A stretch of 11,455 nt of DNA from a virus. The DNA is taken from the UHGV virus genome UHGV-0118720; one strand, written 5' to 3'. The notes below the pieces were generated by a model that was not told the DNA's origin, searched no databases, and was given only the letters and a program-made list of their open reading frames with translations. Positions 458 to 10,303 of the stretch are shown piece by piece (the stretch's first letter is position 1; every line of letters begins with the position of its first letter). Both the position numbers and the translations under genes were made by a program.

Positions 458-898
458 ATGGCGCGCCCAACAAAGTATCAAGAGGCGTACGCCGAACAGG
501 CACGCAAACTGTGCTTGCTGGGCTATACAGACGCAGAGCTTGCTGATTTCTTCGAAGTCAGTGAGTCAACTATTAACAAGTGGAAGCTTGATTATCCTAA
601 GTTTTCGGAGTCCATAAAAAAGGGTAAGGCCGTCGCTGATGCAGAAGTTAGTGATCGTCTTTATCAACGCGCTATGGGCTTCGTGGCTCCAGACATCGAT
701 ATTCGTGTTATTGAAAACAGAATTGTCGAAACTCCGCTTGAGAAGTATTACCCGCCTGATACAACCGCCGCCATCTTCTGGCTTAAGAACCGACAGAAGG
801 ATAAATGGCGCGACAAGGTTGATCACGAATTAACAGGCAAAGACGGCGGCGCAATCCAGATTGAAACATCACCGATGAGCACTCTATTCGGAAAATGA
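458..898 (+). CDS. Terminase small subunit (functional equivalent of P22 gp3; not P22 gp3-like in sequence)
   Basis: 146-aa ORF with RBS GGAG at 447-450. Its TGA (896-898) overlaps the large terminase ATG (895-897) as ATGA. Size, position and an HTH-like N-terminal segment (TDAELADFFEVSESTINKWK) fit a small terminase. Confidence 0.75.
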   Translation: MARPTKYQEAYAEQARKLCLLGYTDAELADFFEVSESTINKWKLDYPKFSESIKKGKAVADAEVSDRLYQRAMGFVAPDIDIRVIENRIVETPLEKYYPPDTTAAIFWLKNRQKDKWRDKVDHELTGKDGGAIQIETSPMSTLFGK

Positions 899-2310
899 CC
901 TCGATTAATCCTATCTTTGAACCGTTCATTGAGGCGCATCGCTACAAAGTCGCCAAAGGCGGTCGAGGTAGCGGTAAATCATGGGCAATTGCGAGGCTGC
1001 TTGTTGAGGCGGCGCGTCGGCAGCCTGTGCGTATTCTCTGCGCTCGTGAACTGCAAAACAGTATCAGCGATTCGGTAATCCGGTTGCTTGAAGACACCAT
1101 AGAGCGGGAAGGGTATTCGGCTGAGTTTGAAATTCAGCGTTCAATGATTCGTCATCTCGGAACGAATGCTGAATTCATGTTCTACGGCATAAAAAACAAC
1201 CCGACGAAGATTAAATCGCTCGAAGGCATTGATATCTGCTGGGTGGAAGAAGCGGAAGCGGTAACAAAGGAATCGTGGGATATCCTGATCCCAACCATCC
1301 GTAAGCCGTTCTCTGAAATATGGGTGAGCTTTAACCCGAAGAACATCCTCGACGATACCTATCAGCGATTCGTAGTAAACCCTCCCGATGATATTTGTCT
1401 GCTGACGGTGAACTACACCGACAACCCGCACTTTCCTGAAGTTCTCCGGCTGGAGATGGAAGAGTGTAAACGCAGAAATCCGACACTGTATCGTCACATC
1501 TGGCTTGGTGAGCCGGTAAGCGCAAGTGATATGGCAATCATCAAACGTGAATGGCTTGAAGCCGCAACCGATGCGCACAAGAAACTCGGATGGAAAGCGA
1601 AAGGCGCTGTTGTCTCTGCGCATGACCCATCAGATACAGGGCCAGATGCTAAAGGTTATGCATCGCGTCACGGTTCGGTGGTTAAGCGCATTGCCGAAGG
1701 TCTACTGATGGACATCAACGAGGGTGCTGACTGGGCTACTTCTCTGGCGATTGAAGACGGCGCTGACCACTACCTGTGGGATGGCGATGGCGTTGGTGCC
1801 GGGCTACGCAGACAGACAACGGAAGCATTCTCCGGTAAGAAAATCACCGCCACGATGTTTAAGGGCAGCGAATCGCCGTTCGATGAAGATGCACCGTATC
1901 AGGCCGGAGCATGGGCTGATGAAGTCGTGCAGGGCGACAACGTTCGCACTATTGGCGATGTGTTCCGCAATAAGCGAGCGCAATTCTATTACGCGCTGGC
2001 TGACAGGCTGTATCTGACATATCGGGCGGTTGTCCACGGTGAGTATGCAGACCCCGACGACATGCTGAGTTTCGACAAAGAAGCAATAGGCGAGAAGATG
2101 CTGGAGAAGCTGTTTGCAGAACTTACGCAGATTCAGCGCAAATTCAATAACAACGGGAAGCTGGAGCTTATGACTAAGGTCGAAATGAAGCAGAAGCTCG
2201 GTATTCCATCTCCTAACCTGGCTGATGCGCTGATGATGTGCATGCATTGCCCGGAGTCGGCTGCGCAACCCGACTATTCCAGTTACTCAATTCCTTGTGG
2301 TGTAGGTTGA
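895..2310 (+). CDS. Terminase large subunit (ATPase/nuclease)
   Basis: 471-aa ORF with a Walker A P-loop near the N-terminus (VAKGGRGSGKSWA) and a probable Walker B/acidic segment (DICWVEEAE). Size and position, directly upstream of the portal gene, are typical. Confidence 0.93.
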   Translation: MTSINPIFEPFIEAHRYKVAKGGRGSGKSWAIARLLVEAARRQPVRILCARELQNSISDSVIRLLEDTIEREGYSAEFEIQRSMIRHLGTNAEFMFYGIKNNPTKIKSLEGIDICWVEEAEAVTKESWDILIPTIRKPFSEIWVSFNPKNILDDTYQRFVVNPPDDICLLTVNYTDNPHFPEVLRLEMEECKRRNPTLYRHIWLGEPVSASDMAIIKREWLEAATDAHKKLGWKAKGAVVSAHDPSDTGPDAKGYASRHGSVVKRIAEGLLMDINEGADWATSLAIEDGADHYLWDGDGVGAGLRRQTTEAFSGKKITATMFKGSESPFDEDAPYQAGAWADEVVQGDNVRTIGDVFRNKRAQFYYALADRLYLTYRAVVHGEYADPDDMLSFDKEAIGEKMLEKLFAELTQIQRKFNNNGKLELMTKVEMKQKLGIPSPNLADALMMCMHCPESAAQPDYSSYSIPCGVG

Positions 2311-2311
2311 T

Positions 2312-4510
2312 ATGGCAGAAAAAAAGATGACTGACTGGCATCGCAAGGTGCTGTGCAACTTTGATAATGCCTGGTCAGCAACGCAGGATATGCGTGAGCA
2401 GATTATTGAGGCTCAACGTTTCGTCAGGGTGTCCGGCGCACAGTGGGAAGGTAGCACAAACGCTGGTTACTCGTTTGATGAGGGCAGGTTTGAGCATTAC
2501 CCGCGCTTTGAACTGAATAAGATTGCCCGTGAATGTGATCGCATCATTGGCGAGTATCGACAGAATCGCATCAGCGTTAAATTCAGACCGAAGGACGATA
2601 AGGCATCGGAAGCGTTAGCCGAAAAGATGAACGGCAAATTCCGCGCTGATTATCAGGAAACATCCGGTGGCGAAGCGTGTGATAACGCATTTGATGATGC
2701 TGTAACGGGCGGATTTGGTTGTTTCCGCATGTGTGCCGATTACGAAGATGAAATGGATCCGAGTAACGAGCAGCGACGCATCAGCCTTCTTCCTGTTTAC
2801 GACCCAGCGACATGCGTCTTCTTCGATCAGGACAGCAAACAATATGACCGCTCTGATGCTATGTGGGCTATGGAAATGTTCTCCATGACGCCCAAAGCGT
2901 TCGAGGCTGAATACCCTGATTCCATCGCGGCAAGCCTTTCTCGAGATGACACTGGCACTCAATATGACTGGTCAACGCCAGATGCCATCTATGTTGGACG
3001 CTACTACGAAGTTCGCATAGAGAAGGTGAAGCTCACGGCGTGGCGCAACCCTGTTAGCGGAGAAACGGCAATCTATGATGAAGAGCAAATCAAAGATGTT
3101 GTTGACGAGCTGACCGATGGCGCATTCGAACTGATTGGTGAGCGGACAGTGAAGAAACGCCGAGTTTATTGCGGTCTTCTGTCTGGTGCTGAATGGCTGG
3201 AAGAGCCGAAGCGTATTCCGGGCGAACATATTCCTCTCATCCCGGTATATGGGCGTCGTTCATTTGTTGATAATCAGGAGCGAATCGAAGGCCACGCAGC
3301 AAAAGCGATGGATGCGCAGCGTCTTGAGAACCTGATGGTTTCCATGATTGCAGATAACGCTACTCAGGCTGGCGGTGATGGCATTCCTGTAGTTGATGTT
3401 GACATGATTCCTGGTCCTCTCGCCACTCATTGGGCAGAGCGCAACAAAAAGCGCCCGGCGTTCCTGCCGATGGTCAGTCTGAAAAACAAAAACGGAGATA
3501 TTACTGCGCAGGCTCAGGTCAGCAGTTATACGCCTCCGACACAAATGCCTCCAGCTCTTGCCGGGCTATTGCAGTACACCGGAACGGCTATTCAGCAAAT
3601 TACAGGTGCGTCGCAGCTTGAGAACATGCCGAGCAACGTCGCCACCGATACCGTTGATAGCATCTTTAACCGGATGGATACGCAGTCCTATATCTACATG
3701 GACAACATGGCTAAATCCATGCGTCGCGCTGGCGTTGTGTGGCTTTCTATGGCGCGTGAGGTCTATGGCAGTGATACGCCGATGCGTATCGTTAATGAGG
3801 ACGGCAGCGATGACGTGGCGCTGATGACTGGTGAAGTGGTTGACCGTCAGACAGGGCAGGTTATCGCGCTTAATGACCTTTCGCAGGGCAACTATGAAGT
3901 GACTGTCGATGTCGGTCAGTCGTTCGCTACTCGCCGTGATGCAACGGTTAAGTCGTTACTTTCCATGCTGGCACTTATCCCGCCAGGAACGCCGAAGCAT
4001 GACCTTGTATCGTCGATGATTCTCGACAATATGGACGGCGAAGGGATGGACGACCTGAAAGAATACAACCGCAATCAGTTGCTTCTGTCTGGAGTTATCA
4101 AGCCGAGAACACCAGAAGAACAGCAGATGGTTGAGCAGGCGAAACAACAACAGGCCAGTCAGCCAGATCCGGCTATGGTTGCAGCGCAAGGTCAGCTTCT
4201 TGCAGGTCAGGCTGAATTGCAGAAAGCGCAGAACGAACAGGCAGCCATTCAGGTTAAAGCATTCCAGGCACAGACTGATGCTCAGGTTGCAGCGGCAAAC
4301 GTTGTGAAAATCCTCGCATCTGCCGATAGCCAGCAGAAATCTGATATCCGCGAGGCTCTGAAACTGCTCGGACAGTTCCAGCAACAGCAAGGAGACAATG
4401 CCCGTGCTGATGCAGAGCTTGTCCTGAAAAGTCAGGCACAGGGCCATGCGCAGCGCATGGACATCAGCAGCATCCTGCAAAAATCAACTCAGCAACAAGC
4501 ACAGCAGTAA
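2312..4510 (+). CDS. Portal protein (P22 gp1-like, with C-terminal helical barrel extension)
   Basis: 732-aa ORF starting 1 nt after the terminase stop. Segments such as KKRRVYCGLL...GEHIPLIPVYG and the C-terminal PEEQQ...DPAMVAAQGQLLAGQAELQKAQN...RMDISSILQ match my recollection of P22 gp1 (about 725 aa). The C-terminus is Gln/Ala-rich and helical. Confidence 0.93.
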   Translation: MAEKKMTDWHRKVLCNFDNAWSATQDMREQIIEAQRFVRVSGAQWEGSTNAGYSFDEGRFEHYPRFELNKIARECDRIIGEYRQNRISVKFRPKDDKASEALAEKMNGKFRADYQETSGGEACDNAFDDAVTGGFGCFRMCADYEDEMDPSNEQRRISLLPVYDPATCVFFDQDSKQYDRSDAMWAMEMFSMTPKAFEAEYPDSIAASLSRDDTGTQYDWSTPDAIYVGRYYEVRIEKVKLTAWRNPVSGETAIYDEEQIKDVVDELTDGAFELIGERTVKKRRVYCGLLSGAEWLEEPKRIPGEHIPLIPVYGRRSFVDNQERIEGHAAKAMDAQRLENLMVSMIADNATQAGGDGIPVVDVDMIPGPLATHWAERNKKRPAFLPMVSLKNKNGDITAQAQVSSYTPPTQMPPALAGLLQYTGTAIQQITGASQLENMPSNVATDTVDSIFNRMDTQSYIYMDNMAKSMRRAGVVWLSMAREVYGSDTPMRIVNEDGSDDVALMTGEVVDRQTGQVIALNDLSQGNYEVTVDVGQSFATRRDATVKSLLSMLALIPPGTPKHDLVSSMILDNMDGEGMDDLKEYNRNQLLLSGVIKPRTPEEQQMVEQAKQQQASQPDPAMVAAQGQLLAGQAELQKAQNEQAAIQVKAFQAQTDAQVAAANVVKILASADSQQKSDIREALKLLGQFQQQQGDNARADAELVLKSQAQGHAQRMDISSILQKSTQQQAQQ

Positions 4511-4600
4511 TTAACTCATAACGTGCAATGGCTGTCTTTATGAGGCCTGGCACCCTATTGCCTTCCGATGGGCTGAACATCGAGTAAACAGGGGTAACAA

Positions 4601-5494
4601 ATGGACCAGATGGCAGAAAACACACCAGAAGTTGAAATCGAACCCGACGCGTCAGAGCAGATTCCTGATGATGTCGAACTGGCTGAAGAAGTCGAAAAAG
4701 CAGATGGCAGTGAGTCCTCAGGAAATGATGCAGAGGAAGATACTGACACTGATGACGACGAATCAGAACAGGAATTCTACTTTGGTGACGAAAAGCTGGA
4801 TTCGCCAACCAGCGAAGATGGCGCAGAGCATGGACTGGTAAAACACCTGCGCAAGACGATTAAAGAGAAAGACCGTGAGCTGAAAGAGCTGATGCGTCAG
4901 TCTCAGAAACCCGTCGAGCAGCAGCCGGTAATCACTCAACCACCGCGAATGCCAAAACTGGATGATGAGGACATCGGTTTCGATGAAGAAATCTACCAGC
5001 AACGCATGGCTAAGTGGGCAGAGGATAACGGCAAGTACCAGCAACAGGAGATGGCTCGCAAGCAGAAGGAGCAGGAGCTTCAGGCTGCCTATCAAGATCG
5101 ATTATCCAAATATCAGCAACGTGTTAAGGCTCTCAAAGTTCCTGGCTATCAGGAAGCTGAGCAGGCCGTACTCGAGGAAATTCCCATCGAGACACAAAAC
5201 GCGATCCTGTTTGAGTCAGAGAAGCCGGAAATCGTTGTTCTGGCGCTCGGTCGCAACGCTGAACTGCGCAAGCAACTGGCAGAAGCTACCAACCCCGTAG
5301 CAATTGGTCGTCTGCTGGAACGTATCGAATCGAAGGCCAGAATCATGCCAAAAGCAAAAACCACGGCAGCCACAACCCCGACAGTTAAGGGGAGCAACGG
5401 CGCAGTAATCAACAACCTCGACAAATTGAAAGCCAAGGCGCTGGAAACTGGTGACTGGACGCCGTATTTCGCCGCTAAAAAGGCAAAAAAATAA
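4601..5494 (+). CDS. Scaffolding protein (P22 gp8-like)
   Basis: 297-aa ORF between portal and coat genes, RBS GGGG at 4591-4594. It has a strongly acidic N-terminal third, charged helical middle, and a basic C-terminal coat-binding-like tail (DKLKAKALETGDWTPYFAAKKAKK). Size is close to P22 gp8. Confidence 0.85.
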   Translation: MDQMAENTPEVEIEPDASEQIPDDVELAEEVEKADGSESSGNDAEEDTDTDDDESEQEFYFGDEKLDSPTSEDGAEHGLVKHLRKTIKEKDRELKELMRQSQKPVEQQPVITQPPRMPKLDDEDIGFDEEIYQQRMAKWAEDNGKYQQQEMARKQKEQELQAAYQDRLSKYQQRVKALKVPGYQEAEQAVLEEIPIETQNAILFESEKPEIVVLALGRNAELRKQLAEATNPVAIGRLLERIESKARIMPKAKTTAATTPTVKGSNGAVINNLDKLKAKALETGDWTPYFAAKKAKK

Positions 5495-5512: not shown

Positions 5513-6766
5513 ATGGCTAACCAATTAGCAAAAGACCTTGAAATCATGTTCGAAAACTACGTTGAAGGCTTTGAGGCCGCCTGCGTAGTTTCCCGTAACG
5601 CTAAAAAATTCCGTCCCGGTGATACAGCAATGCAGCGAGCAGGTGATGTTCTGTATCGTCCGCAGCATTACCACATGAACATTGAAGAAGGCCTCGATCT
5701 CAGCAGCAAAACGCCAACAGCACTGGTTCAGCGCCTTGTTCCTTCTGTGTTCAAGGAGCCGAAAAACATTCTGTACACTCTGGATGCGCGTGAAATGCGT
5801 GACCCTGAGCATAAAACTGAAGCTGGTCGCGCCGCAGGTATGCGCCTTGCTGCACAGATTGACTCTGACCTGATTTCCATGGTCACGCAGCGTGCTACTA
5901 ACGTGATCACAATGGCTGACTCAACCACTGGTTCACAGGGCCGTGATTTGTGGAACTGTGCGGCAGGTATTGATGCCACCATGACGGCGATTGGTGTACC
6001 ACAGGGTATCAACCGCCGCTCTTTCTGGAACCCCTTCAACTACAAAGACCTTGCTGGCGAGCTTGGTCACCGTGCCTATGCTCAGGGCGCAACCCTGACA
6101 GCATACGAAAAAGCGCAGATCCCTCCGGTTGCTTCCTTTGATAGCTACAAGACCGATATTTCTGGTCGTGTTCCGAAGGGTACAGCAACTTCCCTGACGC
6201 TGGCGGCTGAACCTGCGCACAAGGTTGAAGCGAAAGATGCCAACGATATGCCAGTGGATAACCGACAGGGGACCATTACGGTATCTGCATCTGGTTTGCA
6301 GGTTGGCGATGCGTTCACCATTGCAGGGGTGAATTCCGTACACCAGATCACCAAAGATACCACCGGGCAGCCGCAGGTATTCCGCGTTCTGGCAGTAAGC
6401 GGAACGACAGTAACTATCTCCCCGAAAATTCTGCCGCCTGACAACGCGGATGTCGCCAGCCGACCATATGCAAACGTTGATGCTAACGCGGCAAATGGTG
6501 CAGCAATTACCATTCTCAACAAAAATGCCGCACCGGCTAACCTGTTCTGGGCTGATGGTTCTGTTGAACTGATGTACGGCAAACTGGCGTTCCCGACTGG
6601 TCAGGGTCCACAGGTAATGACAGCAACCACCGAGCAGGGCGCTACGCTGATCATGTCTTACGCCTTCGACCACATCAAAGGTGTAACCACAGCTCGTTTC
6701 ACCACTCTGTACGGTTGCTCGGTACTGGTTCCTGAATATACGGGCATCGTTATTGCCGGGCAGTAA
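5513..6766 (+). CDS. Major coat (capsid) protein (P22 gp5-like)
   Basis: 417-aa ORF with RBS GGAG at 5501-5504, following the scaffold gene and followed by a strong hairpin terminator. Size and position match P22-like coat proteins; a conserved-looking motif FWADGSVEL is present. Confidence 0.9.
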   Translation: MANQLAKDLEIMFENYVEGFEAACVVSRNAKKFRPGDTAMQRAGDVLYRPQHYHMNIEEGLDLSSKTPTALVQRLVPSVFKEPKNILYTLDAREMRDPEHKTEAGRAAGMRLAAQIDSDLISMVTQRATNVITMADSTTGSQGRDLWNCAAGIDATMTAIGVPQGINRRSFWNPFNYKDLAGELGHRAYAQGATLTAYEKAQIPPVASFDSYKTDISGRVPKGTATSLTLAAEPAHKVEAKDANDMPVDNRQGTITVSASGLQVGDAFTIAGVNSVHQITKDTTGQPQVFRVLAVSGTTVTISPKILPPDNADVASRPYANVDANAANGAAITILNKNAAPANLFWADGSVELMYGKLAFPTGQGPQVMTATTEQGATLIMSYAFDHIKGVTTARFTTLYGCSVLVPEYTGIVIAGQ

Positions 6767-6772
6767 TTTTGG

Positions 6773-6796
6773 TGGGGCTTCGGCCCCATTTTTATT
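6773..6796. terminator. Rho-independent terminator candidate downstream of the coat gene
   Basis: Perfect 6-bp GC-rich stem TGGGGC/GCCCCA (6773-6778 and 6783-6788) with a TTCG tetraloop (6779-6782), followed by a T-run (6789-6793). It starts 7 nt after the coat stop codon. Confidence 0.65.
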
Positions 6797-6807
6797 GGGA
6801 GAAGGCA

Positions 6808-6996
6808 ATGGCACGAACAATGCTCTATAAGCCTGGCAACATGATCACCTGTGGTCAGTTTGCTGTCGATTACATCATTGTTGATGACGAAGAAGTTAAA
6901 TCTCACCTGAAAAAAGGTTGGGTAAAAACTCCTGAAGAAACCGCAACGAAGCAAAAAGTGGCTAAGGCGGAAGAAGATGGCGAAAACGAAGGGTGA
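6808..6996 (+). CDS. Hypothetical small protein (62 aa) between the coat and gp4-like genes
   Basis: ATG at 6808 preceded by GGGAGAAGG (6797-6805). The ORF track's TTG start at 6769 lies inside the terminator hairpin and is unlikely. The 3' end overlaps the gp4-like gene start by 20 nt in another frame. C-terminus is Lys/Glu-rich. Confidence 0.45.
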   Translation: MARTMLYKPGNMITCGQFAVDYIIVDDEEVKSHLKKGWVKTPEETATKQKVAKAEEDGENEG

Positions 6997-7438
6997 TCTC
7001 GTTCTAAAGGCTTTACGAAAAGCCGGGCTGTATTCCAATGCCACGTTGACAGATGCTGACCCTCAGGCAATTGAAGATGCCATTAATGACCTCGAAGACA
7101 TGATGGCAGCATGGCAGGCGAAAGGTATCGAGCTTGGGTATCAGTTTGCTGATACAGAAAACGGCATCATGCCGTTACCTGACGATGATTCAGGTATCCC
7201 TGCATGGGCAAATGATGGCGTCGCTTTGAAACTCGCTGTGCAAGTGTGCATGGATAACGTCATTCAGCCGTCGGATGCTCTCCTTACCGCTGCTGACTGT
7301 GCATATCAGACAATCTGTATCGCTTTAACCAAAATACCACCACTTGAGCGGCGAAATGACATGCCTCGCGGTAGTGGTAACAAAAGCGCGTTTACGTGGA
7401 ATCGGTTTTACATCGAGAAAGATGATCCGAGTACGTGA
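6977..7438 (+). CDS. Head-to-tail adaptor / portal-closure protein (P22 gp4-like)
   Basis: 153-aa ORF. The N-terminus KTKGDLVLKALRKAGLYSNATLTDADPQAIEDAINDLEDMMAAW and C-terminal PRGSGN motif match my recollection of P22 gp4. It is syntenic between the coat and gp10-like genes. Confidence 0.88.
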   Translation: MAKTKGDLVLKALRKAGLYSNATLTDADPQAIEDAINDLEDMMAAWQAKGIELGYQFADTENGIMPLPDDDSGIPAWANDGVALKLAVQVCMDNVIQPSDALLTAADCAYQTICIALTKIPPLERRNDMPRGSGNKSAFTWNRFYIEKDDPST

Positions 7439-7447
7439 GGTGAATAA

Positions 7448-7552
7448 ATGCCGATTCAGCAACTTCCGCTTATGAAAGGTGTCGGCAAAGATTTCCGAAA
7501 CGCTGACTATATCGACTATCTGCCAGTGAATATGCTGGCAATTTTGATATAA
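7448..7552 (+). pseudogene. Truncated 5' remnant (34 codons) of the gp10-like tail-hub gene, displaced by the insertion
   Basis: RBS GAGG at 7437-7440, then [31 protein letters not shown] followed by ILI and a stop. The first 31 codons align codon-for-codon with the start of the full-length gene at 8121; similarity ends exactly at 7540/7541. Confidence 0.8.
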
Positions 7553-7553
7553 T
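7545..7553 (+). promoter_or_regulatory. Candidate extended -10 promoter element (TGaTATAAT) for the endonuclease gene
   Basis: TG at 7545-7546 and a perfect TATAAT at 7548-7553, about 36 nt upstream of the endonuclease ATG. No good -35 is seen, which extended -10 promoters often lack. Motif match only. Confidence 0.35.
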
Positions 7554-7588
7554 AAGTACATGAAAAATCGAAACTTTAAGGAGTAGAT

Positions 7589-8173
7589 ATGCTTTCTGAG
7601 AATGCTAAAGATATACCTGGATTTGAAGGTGTTTATGCCGTAACAGAAGATGGCAGGGTATATTCTCACTCACGTGTTGTTAAGGCTGCGCATGGCAGCA
7701 CGCAACTCAGAAAGGGGCGCTGGTTAAAGCCTAAAATCAATCAGGGAAGGGTGCTTTATAATATCGGAGCAAAATGGACTTTTGCCCATCGAATCGTTGC
7801 AATGACATTCCTGCCAAATCCTGAAAACAAGCCTCAGGTAAATCATATTGATGGCAATCCACTCAATAATAACGTCAATAATCTTGAGTGGTGCACTCAA
7901 AGCGAAAACATCAAACATGCATACGCCACCGGATTAAAGAAGCCAATCAAGTTTTTCGGAACCAAGCACCCAAAACACAAGTTGAGTGATGACGATGTTC
8001 TTGCAATCAAGTCATCAAAAGAAAGCTTGTCAGTAATTGCGGCTAAGTACGGGATATCTAAGACCTGGGCAAGTAGGCTAAAGCGTGATGCTAACTGGGT
8101 TCATATAAAGGTTGATTCCAATGGCAATACAACAACTACCACTAATGAAGGGATTGGGGAAAAGTGCGGTTAA
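7589..8173 (+). CDS. HNH homing endonuclease (NUMOD4-like N-terminal motif, HNH_3-type catalytic core, C-terminal HTH-like DNA-binding module)
   Basis: Own RBS AAGGAG at 7578-7583, 5-nt spacer. Motifs: IPGFEGVYAVTEDGRVYS (NUMOD4-like), HRIVAMTF...VNHIDGNPLNNNVNNLEWCTQSENIKH (HNH core), LSDDDVLAIKSSKESLSVIAAKYGISKTWASRLKR (HTH-like). The last 18 codons overlap the gp10-like gene start out of frame. Confidence 0.85.
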   Translation: MLSENAKDIPGFEGVYAVTEDGRVYSHSRVVKAAHGSTQLRKGRWLKPKINQGRVLYNIGAKWTFAHRIVAMTFLPNPENKPQVNHIDGNPLNNNVNNLEWCTQSENIKHAYATGLKKPIKFFGTKHPKHKLSDDDVLAIKSSKESLSVIAAKYGISKTWASRLKRDANWVHIKVDSNGNTTTTTNEGIGEKCG

Positions 8174-9539
8174 TGCTGATTATATAGACCAACTTCCAGT
8201 CAATCTTTTAGCTACGCCCAAGGAGGTGTTGAATTCATCGGGATATCTTCGCTCATTCCCGGGCATTGCAAAACGTTCTGATGTGAACGGTGTATCTCGC
8301 GGCGTCGAGTACAACATGGCGCAGAATGCTGTTTATCGTGTGTGTGGTGGCAAGCTGTACAAAGGAGAAAGTGAAGTCGGTGACGTTGCCGGAAGTGGTC
8401 GCGTATCAATGGCGCATGGTCGTATATCACAGGCGGTAGGGGTTAACGGGAAACTGGTCGAGTATCGCTATGATGGCACGATTAAAACCGTCTCAAACTG
8501 GCCTACAGACAGCGGATTCACGCAGTATGAGTTAGGATCAGTCCGCGACATTACGCGCTTACGTGGGCGTTATGCGTGGTCAAAAGACGGCACTGATTCA
8601 TGGTTTATCACTGACCTTGAAGACGAATCGCATCCTGACCGTTACAGCGCACAATATCGCGCAGAATCGCAGCCTGACGGCATCATCGGCATAGGAACAT
8701 GGCGAGACTTCATCGTCTGCTTTGGTTCATCGACGATTGAATATTTCTCCCTGACTGGCGCAACCACAGTTGGTGCTGCTTTGTATGTCGCACAGCCATC
8801 ACTGATGGTGCAGAAAGGCATTGCCGGGACTTACTGCAAAACGCCATTCGCTGATTCGTATGCGTTCATCAGCAATCCGGCAACAGGTGCGCCGTCTGTA
8901 TACATCATCGGCTCCGGTCAGGTGTCACCAATCGCCAGCGCGAGCATTGAGAAAATCCTCCGCTCCTACACTGCTGATGAACTGGCTGATGGTGTGATGG
9001 AATCGCTGCGATTTGATGCTCATGAGTTGCTGATTATCCACCTTCCGCGCCATGTTCTCGTGTACGACGCATCTTCAAGCGCCAATGGTCCGCAATGGTG
9101 TGTGCTGAAAACAGGTCTGTATGACGATGTGTACCGCGCTATCGACTTCATTTACGAAGGCAATCAGATAACGTGCGGCGATAAACTGGAGTCCGTGACC
9201 GGGAAATTGCAATTCGACATCAGCAGCCAGTACGACAAGCAACAGGAACACCTGCTGTTTACTCCACTGTTCAAAGCGGATAACGCCAGATGCTTCGATC
9301 TGGAGGTGGAATCATCCACTGGCGTAGCTCAGTACGCCGACCGCCTGTTCCTCTCTGCAACCACTGACGGCATAAATTACGGGCGTGAGCAGATGATTGA
9401 ACAGAATGAACCGTTCGTTTACGACAAGCGTGTTTTGTGGAAGCGTGTCGGGCGCATCAGGAAAAACATTGGCTTCAAATTGCGCGTTATCACGAAGTCA
9501 CCTGTCACTCTGTCTGGCTGCCAGATAAGGATTGAGTAA
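8121..9539 (+). CDS. Tail hub / needle-socket protein (P22 gp10-like), full length with a chimeric N-terminus
   Basis: 472 codons from ATG 8121; the ORF track's 8112 start is TTG and less likely. From about codon 32 ([19 protein letters not shown]...) to the end it matches my recollection of P22 gp10. The first 31 codons are a recoded variant of the upstream remnant. Confidence 0.9.
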
Positions 9540-10303
9540 TGGCGGATTCGAATCTCAATGTGCCGGTAATCATTCAGGCTGCACGGCTCGACACATCAGT
9601 CCTTCCACGCAATATCTTCTCGCAGTCGTATCTGCTTTACGTTATCGCACAGGGCACTGATGTTGGTAACGTGGCTAACAAGGCCAACGAGGCCGGACAG
9701 GGCGCTTATGATGCACAGGTCAGGAACGATGAGCAGGATGTGATTCTCGCTGACCATGAGCAGCGAATTTCTGCTGCGGAAGCAACGCTTGTTAATCATG
9801 AGGAGCGAATCAGCCAGGCAGAATCAACTCTTCAGGAACATGAAACGCGCATCGATGCTCTTGAGTATGCCACTACTCGTAAGAAATCAGAGGTTGTTTA
9901 CTCTGGCGTATCAGTAACAATCCCGACAGCGCCTACCAACCTTGTTAGCCTGCTGAAAACGCTCACGCCGTCATCCGGCACGTTGGCACCATTCTTCGAC
10001 ACCGTTAACAACAAGATGGTTGTGTTCAACGAGAACAAAACTTTGTTCTTCAAGCTGTCTATTGTCGGGACGTGGCCCAGCGGAACCACCAACAGGTCAA
10101 TGCAGCTAACATTTTCCGGCTCTGTTCCTGACACACTGGTCAGCAGTCGTAATGCGGCGACAACAACCGACAACATCCTGTTAGCTACGTTCTTCAGCGT
10201 GGATAAAGACGGATCTCTTGCCACAAATGGCAGTACGTTAACCATCCAGTCAAATGGTGCGGCGTTTACTGCCACAACCATCAAGATAATCGCGGAGCAG
10301 TGA
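9539..10303 (+). CDS. Tail needle protein (P22 gp26-like N-terminus and coiled coil, plus a C-terminal knob domain)
   Basis: ATG overlaps the gp10-like stop (TAATG). The N-terminus [18 protein letters not shown]...[14 protein letters not shown]...[13 protein letters not shown]...DEQDV matches my recollection of gp26. A short coiled coil with three 14-residue repeats is followed by a roughly 140-aa Thr/Ser-rich beta-type domain absent from P22 gp26. Confidence 0.88.
9755..9880 (+). repeat. Three tandem 42-nt (14-codon) repeats encoding the coiled-coil segment of the tail needle
   Basis: Units begin with CAT GAG/GAA at 9755, 9797 and 9839, encoding [14 protein letters not shown] / [14 protein letters not shown] / [14 protein letters not shown]. 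Confidence 0.55.

Follow-up and report, generated by a model that had tools for sequence, protein, structure and literature searches.

A stem-loop with a U-rich tail located directly downstream of the coat gene in the late operons of P22-type phages

Gene organization around the coat gene

The DNA analyzed is a stretch of 11,455 nucleotides of the virus genome UHGV-0118720 (hereafter the window), and the genes and features identified on its + strand are listed in Table 1. The coat gene ends with the stop codon TAA at 6764-6766, and its product shows 100% amino acid identity to the coat protein of phage Sf101. The region 6400-7100 is 94-99% identical to the corresponding regions of the Lederbergvirus phages Sf101, Kapi1, JEP4, Huey and CUS-3, the identity to Sf101 being 99% across this region. 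An initial annotation, made from the sequence alone, had described a hairpin with a UUCG-type tetraloop and a U-run between the coat gene and the downstream genes, and this element was confirmed at 6771-6796.

Table 1. Genes of the late operon and elements of the coat-proximal spacer identified in the window
Feature	Position	Strand	Basis and remarks
Small terminase	458-898	+	PHROG search
Large terminase	895-2310	+	PHROG search
Portal	2312-4510	+	PHROG search
Scaffolding protein gene	4601-5494	+	phrog_648, E = 1.3e-118
Major coat protein gene (417 aa)	5513-6766	+	phrog_283 major head protein, E = 2.5e-121; P22-type fold family, CUS-3/Sf101 subtype
Hairpin	6771-6790	+	Read from sequence, folds and scans; starts 5 nt past the coat stop
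5' arm GGUGGGGC	6771-6778	+	
Loop UUCG	6779-6782	+	cUUCGg tetraloop, closed by C6778-G6783
3' arm GCCCCAUU	6783-6790	+	
U-tract UUUUUAUU	6789-6796	+	U-run 6789-6793, then A, then UU 6795-6796
Shine-Dalgarno-like GGGAG	6797-6801	+	Read from sequence; 6 nt 5' of ATG 6808
62-aa ORF (phrog_1175)	6808-6996	+	E = 9e-29; CDS annotated in relatives
gp4-type adaptor	6977-7438	+	PHROG search
HNH endonuclease ORF	7589-8173	+	phrog_59, E = 4e-53
gp10 (intact copy)	8121-9539	+	PHROG search
Needle gene	9539-10303	+	PHROG search

Low-copy genes follow the hairpin as initially described, but the immediate neighbor is not the adaptor gene: the first gene on the 3' side is the 62-aa ORF, the end of which overlaps the start of the gp4 adaptor gene. 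This ORF is homologous to P22 orf69 by position and, weakly, by sequence (26% identity across 42 aa, E = 4e-7).

In the complete Sf101 genome, the gene annotated as 'antitermination Q' is followed by the lysis genes and then by the terminase, portal, scaffold and coat genes; the 11,455-nt window itself carries no Q gene. On the basis of this synteny with Sf101 (Q, lysis genes, then head genes), the hairpin is located inside a lambdoid Q-dependent late operon, and its original placement within a polycistronic late operon is upheld. Modification of RNA polymerase by Q suppresses hairpin-dependent termination. Antitermination by Q is the switch that turns on lambdoid late operons (PMC2629481). 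Within this operon, the scaffold and coat genes are proposed to form a high-abundance block that ends at the hairpin.

Structure of the post-coat hairpin

The sequence on the 3' side of the coat TAA reads UUUU-GGUGGGGC-UUCG-GCCCCAUU-UUUAUU-GGGAG-AAGGCA-AUG. The Watson-Crick core of the stem (6773-6788) contains six base pairs as first reported, but is not a perfect GC stem, being composed of five G-C pairs and one U-A pair, and two G.U pairs extend the stem to 8 bp. The first two U's of the U-tract are able to take part in the stem, pairing as G.U with 6771-6772. The hairpin end is separated by 6 nt from the GGGAG sequence and by 17 nt from the ATG, within a coat-to-ORF spacer of 41 nt in total.

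The minimum free energy of the hairpin was -14.7 kcal/mol (z = -2.62), and three of the 200 shuffled sequences folded equally well; taken alone, the fold is modestly unusual. The free energies obtained lay between -13.1 and -14.7 kcal/mol, and the hairpin was kept when a 161-nt context was folded. In the predicted fold, the Shine-Dalgarno sequence is left unsequestered by the hairpin. The features of an intrinsic terminator are present, namely a GC-rich stem (5 bp or more) carrying a loop within the range of 3-8 nt and, on the transcribed strand, a U-tract that directly adjoins the stem on its 3' side. On the - strand there is no U-run after the stem, so the element is directional. A search of the whole window against the Rfam families gave no match at the gathering score.

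Two other assignments were rejected, a terminator of antisense transcription for the lack of a U-tract on the - strand, and an RNase III site for a stem that is far too short.

Terminator-like sequences in the window and in the Sf101 genome

A loose consensus scan of the window detected 19 terminator-like sites, against 11.4 +/- 3.3 expected from shuffled sequences, and the terminator-like pattern by itself is therefore not rare; the post-coat hairpin ranks first among the 19. A strict scan required a perfect stem, a loop of 3-8 nt, dG <= -8 and a U-rich tail. Under these conditions only two sites remained on the + strand of the window, of which the post-coat hairpin is the sole one located directly after a stop codon, and three sites on the + strand of the whole 38.7-kb Sf101 genome. 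The other two sites of Sf101 (locus L106) are located at 31697-31720 in the nin region, between Sf101_0045 and ninA, and at 37359-37378, 3' of the lysis genes and 5' of a Rha-family gene.

Conservation among close relatives

The hairpin is nearly invariant across about 90 sequences of the CUS-3/Sf101 type. Across 11 phage records, the 41-nt spacer differs at only two positions, both in the flanks, and the core and the U-tract are invariant. From IMG/VR, 80 loci with coats 90-100% identical were collected, of which 78 had a coat-end anchor that allowed location of the spacer; the core is invariant in all but two of these 78 loci, and the U-tract is also almost invariant. The variations observed among the 78 were at two bases 5' of the core and, in one locus, a mismatch in the stem. 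A single loop variant was also found among these 78 loci, UUCG being changed to UACG, which still belongs to the UNCG class. Two more divergent IMG/VR loci carry the same GGGGC-UUCG-GCCCC core within other flanking sequences.

Within the CUS-3 clade, the nucleotide diversity is 0.0036 for the core stem-loop and 0.015 for the spacer, against 0.03-0.07 at the synonymous sites of the small ORF, of gp4 and of the flanking 180 nt of coat. The low diversity of the core fits purifying selection, but this within-clade signal is weakly powered, because it is based on 16-41 sites in a region of generally low diversity that includes the downstream genes. As a separate observation, synonymous diversity reaches 0.28 in the middle of the coat gene (6137-6586) but is only 0.03-0.07 from about 6587 onward, across the small ORF and gp4. 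This suggests that a recombination (mosaic) boundary lies within the 3' portion of the coat gene and not at the hairpin.

Conservation among distant relatives

Coat loci of 15 further lineages, with coat identities of 25-73%, were each subjected as a whole locus to the same strict scan. In 14 of the 16 sequences (the window counted), which cover a range of 25-100% coat identity, a hairpin with a perfect stem and a U-rich tail begins 5-34 nt past the coat stop. The lineages with the hairpin include P22, Sf6-like, Vibrio and Proteus phages as well as virulent phages of the Sortsne, Skarpretter and Lumpael types. The 14 lineages carry about 12 distinct stem sequences, such as AGGGGC-UGCG-GCCCCU in P22, AGAGGGAGC-UUCG-GCUCCCUUU in the Sf6-like phages, GGGCGGC-UUCG-GUCGCCC in Vibrio phages and AAAGGGGAGCC-AUU-GGCUCCUCUUU in Lumpael; the position is thus kept while the sequence changes. 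Elsewhere in the same loci, comprising about 65 kb, there were 10 strict hits. In phage PVA1, the hairpin is present but its U-tail is poor. In Firinga, the hairpin follows an extra ORF of 229 aa instead of the coat gene, but is still located directly 5' of the phrog_1175 gene. Genes of the phrog_1175/3769 type are situated 3' of the hairpin in several lineages, and between the hairpin and the start codon there are about 15 to 55 nt, depending on the lineage.

A second set consisted of 76 loci of an environmental clade, the coats of which are 72-94% identical to that of a Manatee Spring phage and 35% identical to the window coat. A hairpin with dG <= -10 (median -17.5) was located 5-20 nt past the coat stop in 73 of the 76 loci, against an expected background of 0.036 per 60-nt window, corresponding to an enrichment of about 25-fold over the background hairpin density. 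The loops are cUUCGg in 30 loci and of the GNRA class in about 23. The U-tail filter was passed by 50 of the 76 loci, the U-tract of the remaining 26 being poor; conservation thus extends further for the hairpin than for the U-tract. A pair count on hand-cut stems gave 100% pairing, but this count is circular, the stems having been picked as stems, and was excluded from the evidence. Conservation in related phages had been named beforehand as a check on the hairpin, and it is borne out in both sets.

Because it is found at the same spot in almost all of the related phages, the hairpin is, on these comparative grounds, real and under selection. A functionless origin, either as a chance GC palindrome or as a relic of recombination at a module junction, would agree with the modest z value of the single sequence, with the many sites of the loose scan and with the diversity shift near the coat end, which fits a nearby mosaic boundary. 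Such an origin is nevertheless extremely improbable: the position is kept with changed stems, with coats down to 25% identity and in unrelated capsid families (see below), and together with the enrichment over background the comparative data effectively refute it.

Several further features were observed in individual relatives. The 229-aa ORF of Firinga, a Ralstonia phage (locus L022), occupies 2469-3158 between the coat gene and the hairpin; it gave no match in the PHROG search, and may encode an extra abundant head protein, for instance a decoration protein. In the virulent relatives, the post-coat hairpin is followed by a tract of seven to eight U's, and in Lumpael, IME_EC2, Sortsne, Kc237 and sortkaff a conserved sequence (G/C)GC(T/A)TATACT (the GGCTTATACT motif; loci L011 at 2500-2520, L013, L015, L016 and L017) is located directly 3' of the U-tract. 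In Lumpael and IME_EC2 it forms the arrangement TTGGCT-17 nt-TATACT, which overlaps the 3' arm of the hairpin. Judged from its sequence, the TATACT motif of the virulent relatives is probably a promoter paired with a terminator, and the arrangement suggests a genuine terminator-promoter boundary at the hairpin in these phages. The motif is absent from the temperate phages, the window included. A promoter directly 3' of the hairpin was likewise rejected for the window, where the hairpin and the ATG are a mere 17 nt apart and no promoter-like site was detected between them by the scan.

In Skarpretter, C130_2, Vibrio 1.079 and PVA1, a terminator-like hairpin is also located in the gap 5' of the scaffold gene (L012 77-99, L014 29-58, L024 93-112 and L023 191-208). 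Together with the post-coat hairpin it brackets the scaffold and coat genes of these relatives, an arrangement resembling that of the major tail gene of HK97. No pre-scaffold hairpin was found in the 90-nt portal-scaffold gap (4511-4600) of the window.

Counterparts in other phages

The closest counterpart is the 'stem_loop' annotated at 6102..6119 of P22 (NC_002371.2), between gene 5 (coat) and orf69, which is marked 'putative' in RefSeq and noted as 'similar in location to stem-loops in phage HK97 and phage lambda'. It is located 6 nt past the coat stop and 5' of an orf69-type small gene, within the same type of late operon, and has a U-rich tail. Its core, AGGGGC-UGCG-GCCCCU, is nearly identical to that of the window, UGGGGC-UUCG-GCCCCA, while the two coats are only about 28% identical and the P22 tail (UUCUUUAU) is weaker. 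The record of HK97 (NC_002167.1) carries a 'putative terminator' at 5192..5213, 7 nt past gp5, with the loop GAAA; such sites also bracket the major tail gene of HK97, an arrangement for which the podovirus of the window has no equivalent. In lambda, the strict scan detected AUGGCCC-UUCG-GGGCCAU 3 nt past gene E, with a cUUCGg loop and in an intergenic gap of 41 nt as in the window, but with a poor U-tract (tail UGUUUCUC).

The likeness of lambda and HK97 to the window thus consists in a GC hairpin with a stable tetraloop, 3-7 nt past the capsid stop and in a Q-dependent late operon, whereas the capsid families and the downstream genes are unrelated to those of the window. The window hairpin, being on the same strand as the capsid gene, near the capsid stop and inside a Q-antiterminated operon, joins a class of features already annotated in the P22 and HK97 records. 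The literature searched contained no experiment testing the post-coat hairpin of P22, lambda, HK97 or any other Q-antiterminated operon; strand-specific RNA-seq data of P22, taken at 30, 60 and 90 min of infection and induction, have been published (Fillol-Salom et al. 2021, PMC8575938).

The position of the hairpin, 5 nt past one gene and 6 nt before the Shine-Dalgarno-like sequence of the next, would also suit an element serving the small downstream gene, either by uncoupling the coat ribosomes, by protecting a processed downstream 5' end, or by setting the accessibility of GGGAG. The Firinga hairpin, which adjoins the phrog_1175 gene rather than coat, and the recurrence of phrog_1175/3769-type genes after the hairpin agree with such a role. 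We consider it very unlikely, as the hairpins of lambda and HK97 precede unrelated genes, the distance to the start codon is variable, and the Shine-Dalgarno sequence is free in the predicted fold.

Terminators after capsid genes are also known or predicted outside the Q-dependent phages. In T7, T-phi is located directly 3' of gene 10A 'and even it terminates incompletely' (PMC6068830), and in the T7-like phage LUZ100 a strong terminator is located 3' of the capsid gene (PMC10134795). The window would resemble these in having a leaky terminator after the top-expressed structural gene, with read-through feeding the downstream virion genes (PMC6068830, PMC10134795). T-phi, however, acts on the single-subunit RNA polymerase of the phage, and genes 9 and 10 have dedicated promoters, whereas the window depends on the host polymerase under Q antitermination and has no evident promoter nearby. 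Phage phiX174 carries weak Rho-independent terminators, TJ, TF, TG and TH, located 3' of structural genes, the capsid gene F among them, which generate nested transcripts and a graded mRNA dosage; TJ, TF and TG pass 0.59-0.80 of transcription (bioRxiv 10.1101/2020.03.05.979765). This is a small single-stranded DNA phage without antitermination and with several terminators in series, and its efficiencies are measured values. For SPP1, a terminator has been predicted at 8775-8815, directly at the 3' end (8777) of the capsid gene 13 (PMC6316719).

Proposed role of the hairpin

The initial annotation had offered two functions, a partial terminator and an mRNA-stabilizing 3' hairpin. Both are sensible candidates in view of the positional conservation, and the sequence is compatible with either. 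The extra-stable tetraloops and the conservation of the hairpin beyond that of the U-tract suggest that the folded RNA has a role of its own. Our preferred reading, which we hold to be somewhat probable, combines the two: the element would be a leaky terminator of the intrinsic type, the hairpin of which mainly forms or protects the 3' end of the abundant scaffold-coat message. It is favored because the operon is Q-antiterminated and because fewer relatives have kept the U-tract than the hairpin.

From these features we infer a course of events that involves termination, read-through, stabilization and effects on protein ratios. RNA polymerase starting at the late promoter would be modified by Q to a terminator-resistant form, and would mostly read through the hairpin into the genes for the small ORF, the adaptor, gp10, the needle and the ejection proteins. 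A minority of polymerases would stop at the hairpin, being either unmodified, for example after starting at internal promoters, or left terminator-sensitive by failed antitermination. Within the read-through RNA, the hairpin would block 3'-to-5' exonucleases after endonucleolytic cuts further downstream. Both routes would leave RNA 3' ends at about 6790-6796, and for this reason the scaffold-coat mRNA would exceed the downstream segment in both abundance and lifetime. The predicted net effect is a modest dosage bias in favor of coat and scaffold, added to differences in translation initiation. Four coding-strand promoters have been located inside the capsid gene cluster of the P22-like prophage BTP1 (PMC7067206), and internal promoters of this kind would, by analogy, supply unmodified polymerase.

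The anatomy and the perfect U-tract, which is invariant in the CUS-3 clade, speak for an intrinsic terminator. On the other side, the Q-modified polymerase may ignore the site almost completely. Termination is not the universally selected activity, because the 26 environmental loci and PVA1 keep the hairpin with a poor U-tract. Furthermore, the coat stop codon, which is heavily used, is only 5 nt away, and ribosomes terminating on it would cover part of the 5' arm of the hairpin. The initial proposal that termination at this site sets the stoichiometry of the transcripts is probably overstated, in view of the Q-modified polymerase and of the one-third or so of the environmental clade without a good U-tract. 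The copy numbers of coat and adaptor differ about 35-fold, and this gap leads us to doubt the proposal, because it far exceeds what a single leaky terminator could give. For lambda, Sampson et al. in 1988 reportedly ascribed the differences in late-gene output mainly to translation initiation.

Intercistronic hairpins that are located 3' of the major-subunit gene and shield the upstream mRNA from 3' exonucleases, and thereby lead to differential expression within one operon, are known from papBA, puf and the malEFG REP sequences, and hairpins of the type C(UUCG)G are carried by intercistronic regions of T4. An element of this kind could act at the present site without any termination, Q-directed read-through being complete and the hairpin serving as a barrier to PNPase and RNase II that lets the decay intermediates of scaffold-coat mRNA persist. 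The Q antitermination of the operon, the environmental loci and PVA1 with a hairpin but a poor tail, the weak tail of lambda, and the loops belonging to the extra-stable UNCG and GNRA classes are all in agreement with pure 3'-end protection. Bacterial stabilizer hairpins, however, are generally without a U-tract or do not need one. An exonuclease barrier would thus leave unaccounted for the perfect and invariant U-tract of the window and its clade, the U-rich tails right after the stem in most lineages, and the seven to eight U's of the virulent relatives, and we regard protection alone as possible but doubtful.

The leaky terminator with 3'-end protection described above leaves most downstream expression to read-through. 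A full terminator for unmodified polymerase, coming from internal or spurious promoters or by read-in from the host in the lysogen, would instead make downstream expression strictly Q-dependent. The strong terminator anatomy, the internal promoters of BTP1, and the presence of only three such hairpins on the Sf101 + strand (post-coat, in the nin region and after the lysis genes) are compatible with insulation of this type. It is unlikely, in our estimation, for it would explain neither the position after the most abundant structural gene in nearly all lineages nor the hairpin of virulent phages, which have no lysogeny, and of clades with poor U-tracts.

The distance between stop codon and hairpin raises one further possibility. 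In the Q-dependent temperate phages, the hairpin is located 3-10 nt past the capsid stop (5 nt in the window, 6 nt in P22 and the Sf6-like phages, 3 nt in lambda), and a ribosome on the coat stop would, because of this short distance, cover part of the 5' arm. In the virulent relatives, the hairpin is 17-34 nt from the coat stop, and is accompanied by the probable promoter. Formation of the 3' end might thus be tied to the distance between ribosome and polymerase and to the translation of coat, a gating that we hold to be rather improbable. If true, the supply of the low-copy downstream transcripts would be coupled to coat translation.

From one long transcript, a tailed phage makes about 400 copies of coat and about 250 of scaffold, but only about a dozen of neck and tail proteins. 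If the hairpin biases mRNA dosage as preferred here, it would be part of how the excess of coat and scaffold over the neck and tail proteins arises. According to the present survey, nearly all phages with a P22-type coat gene carry a stable post-capsid hairpin, and such a hairpin recurs in the unrelated capsid families of lambda, HK97 and, as a published prediction, SPP1. It should be useful as a landmark for annotation, and in phage engineering and P22 virus-like-particle constructs its deletion or inclusion could alter coat yield or downstream expression. None of these points will be surprising to a specialist.

An HNH insertion within gp10

The second strict-scan site of the window is located at 7521-7540 on the + strand (UGCCAGUGAAUAUGCUGGCA, then AUUUUGAU; dG -9.9). 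Leftover codons of gp10 (LPVNMLA), at the left-hand junction of an insertion, make up this hairpin, which lies just 5' of the HNH gene. The HNH gene is free-standing (7589-8173), and is inserted 31 codons into gp10 (region 7439-8173); Sf101 is without this insert. The original 5' end of gp10 (ATG 7448) retains 95% DNA identity to Sf101, but is cut off by stop codons, while a second copy of the gp10 5' end, 66% identical to Sf101, starts at 8121 within the 3' end of the HNH ORF and runs into the intact gp10 (to 9539). The same spacing of 742 nt was observed in four IMG/VR loci (L052, L058, L071 and L097). From its sequence, the insert looks like a homing-endonuclease cassette that brought with it a recoded target site.
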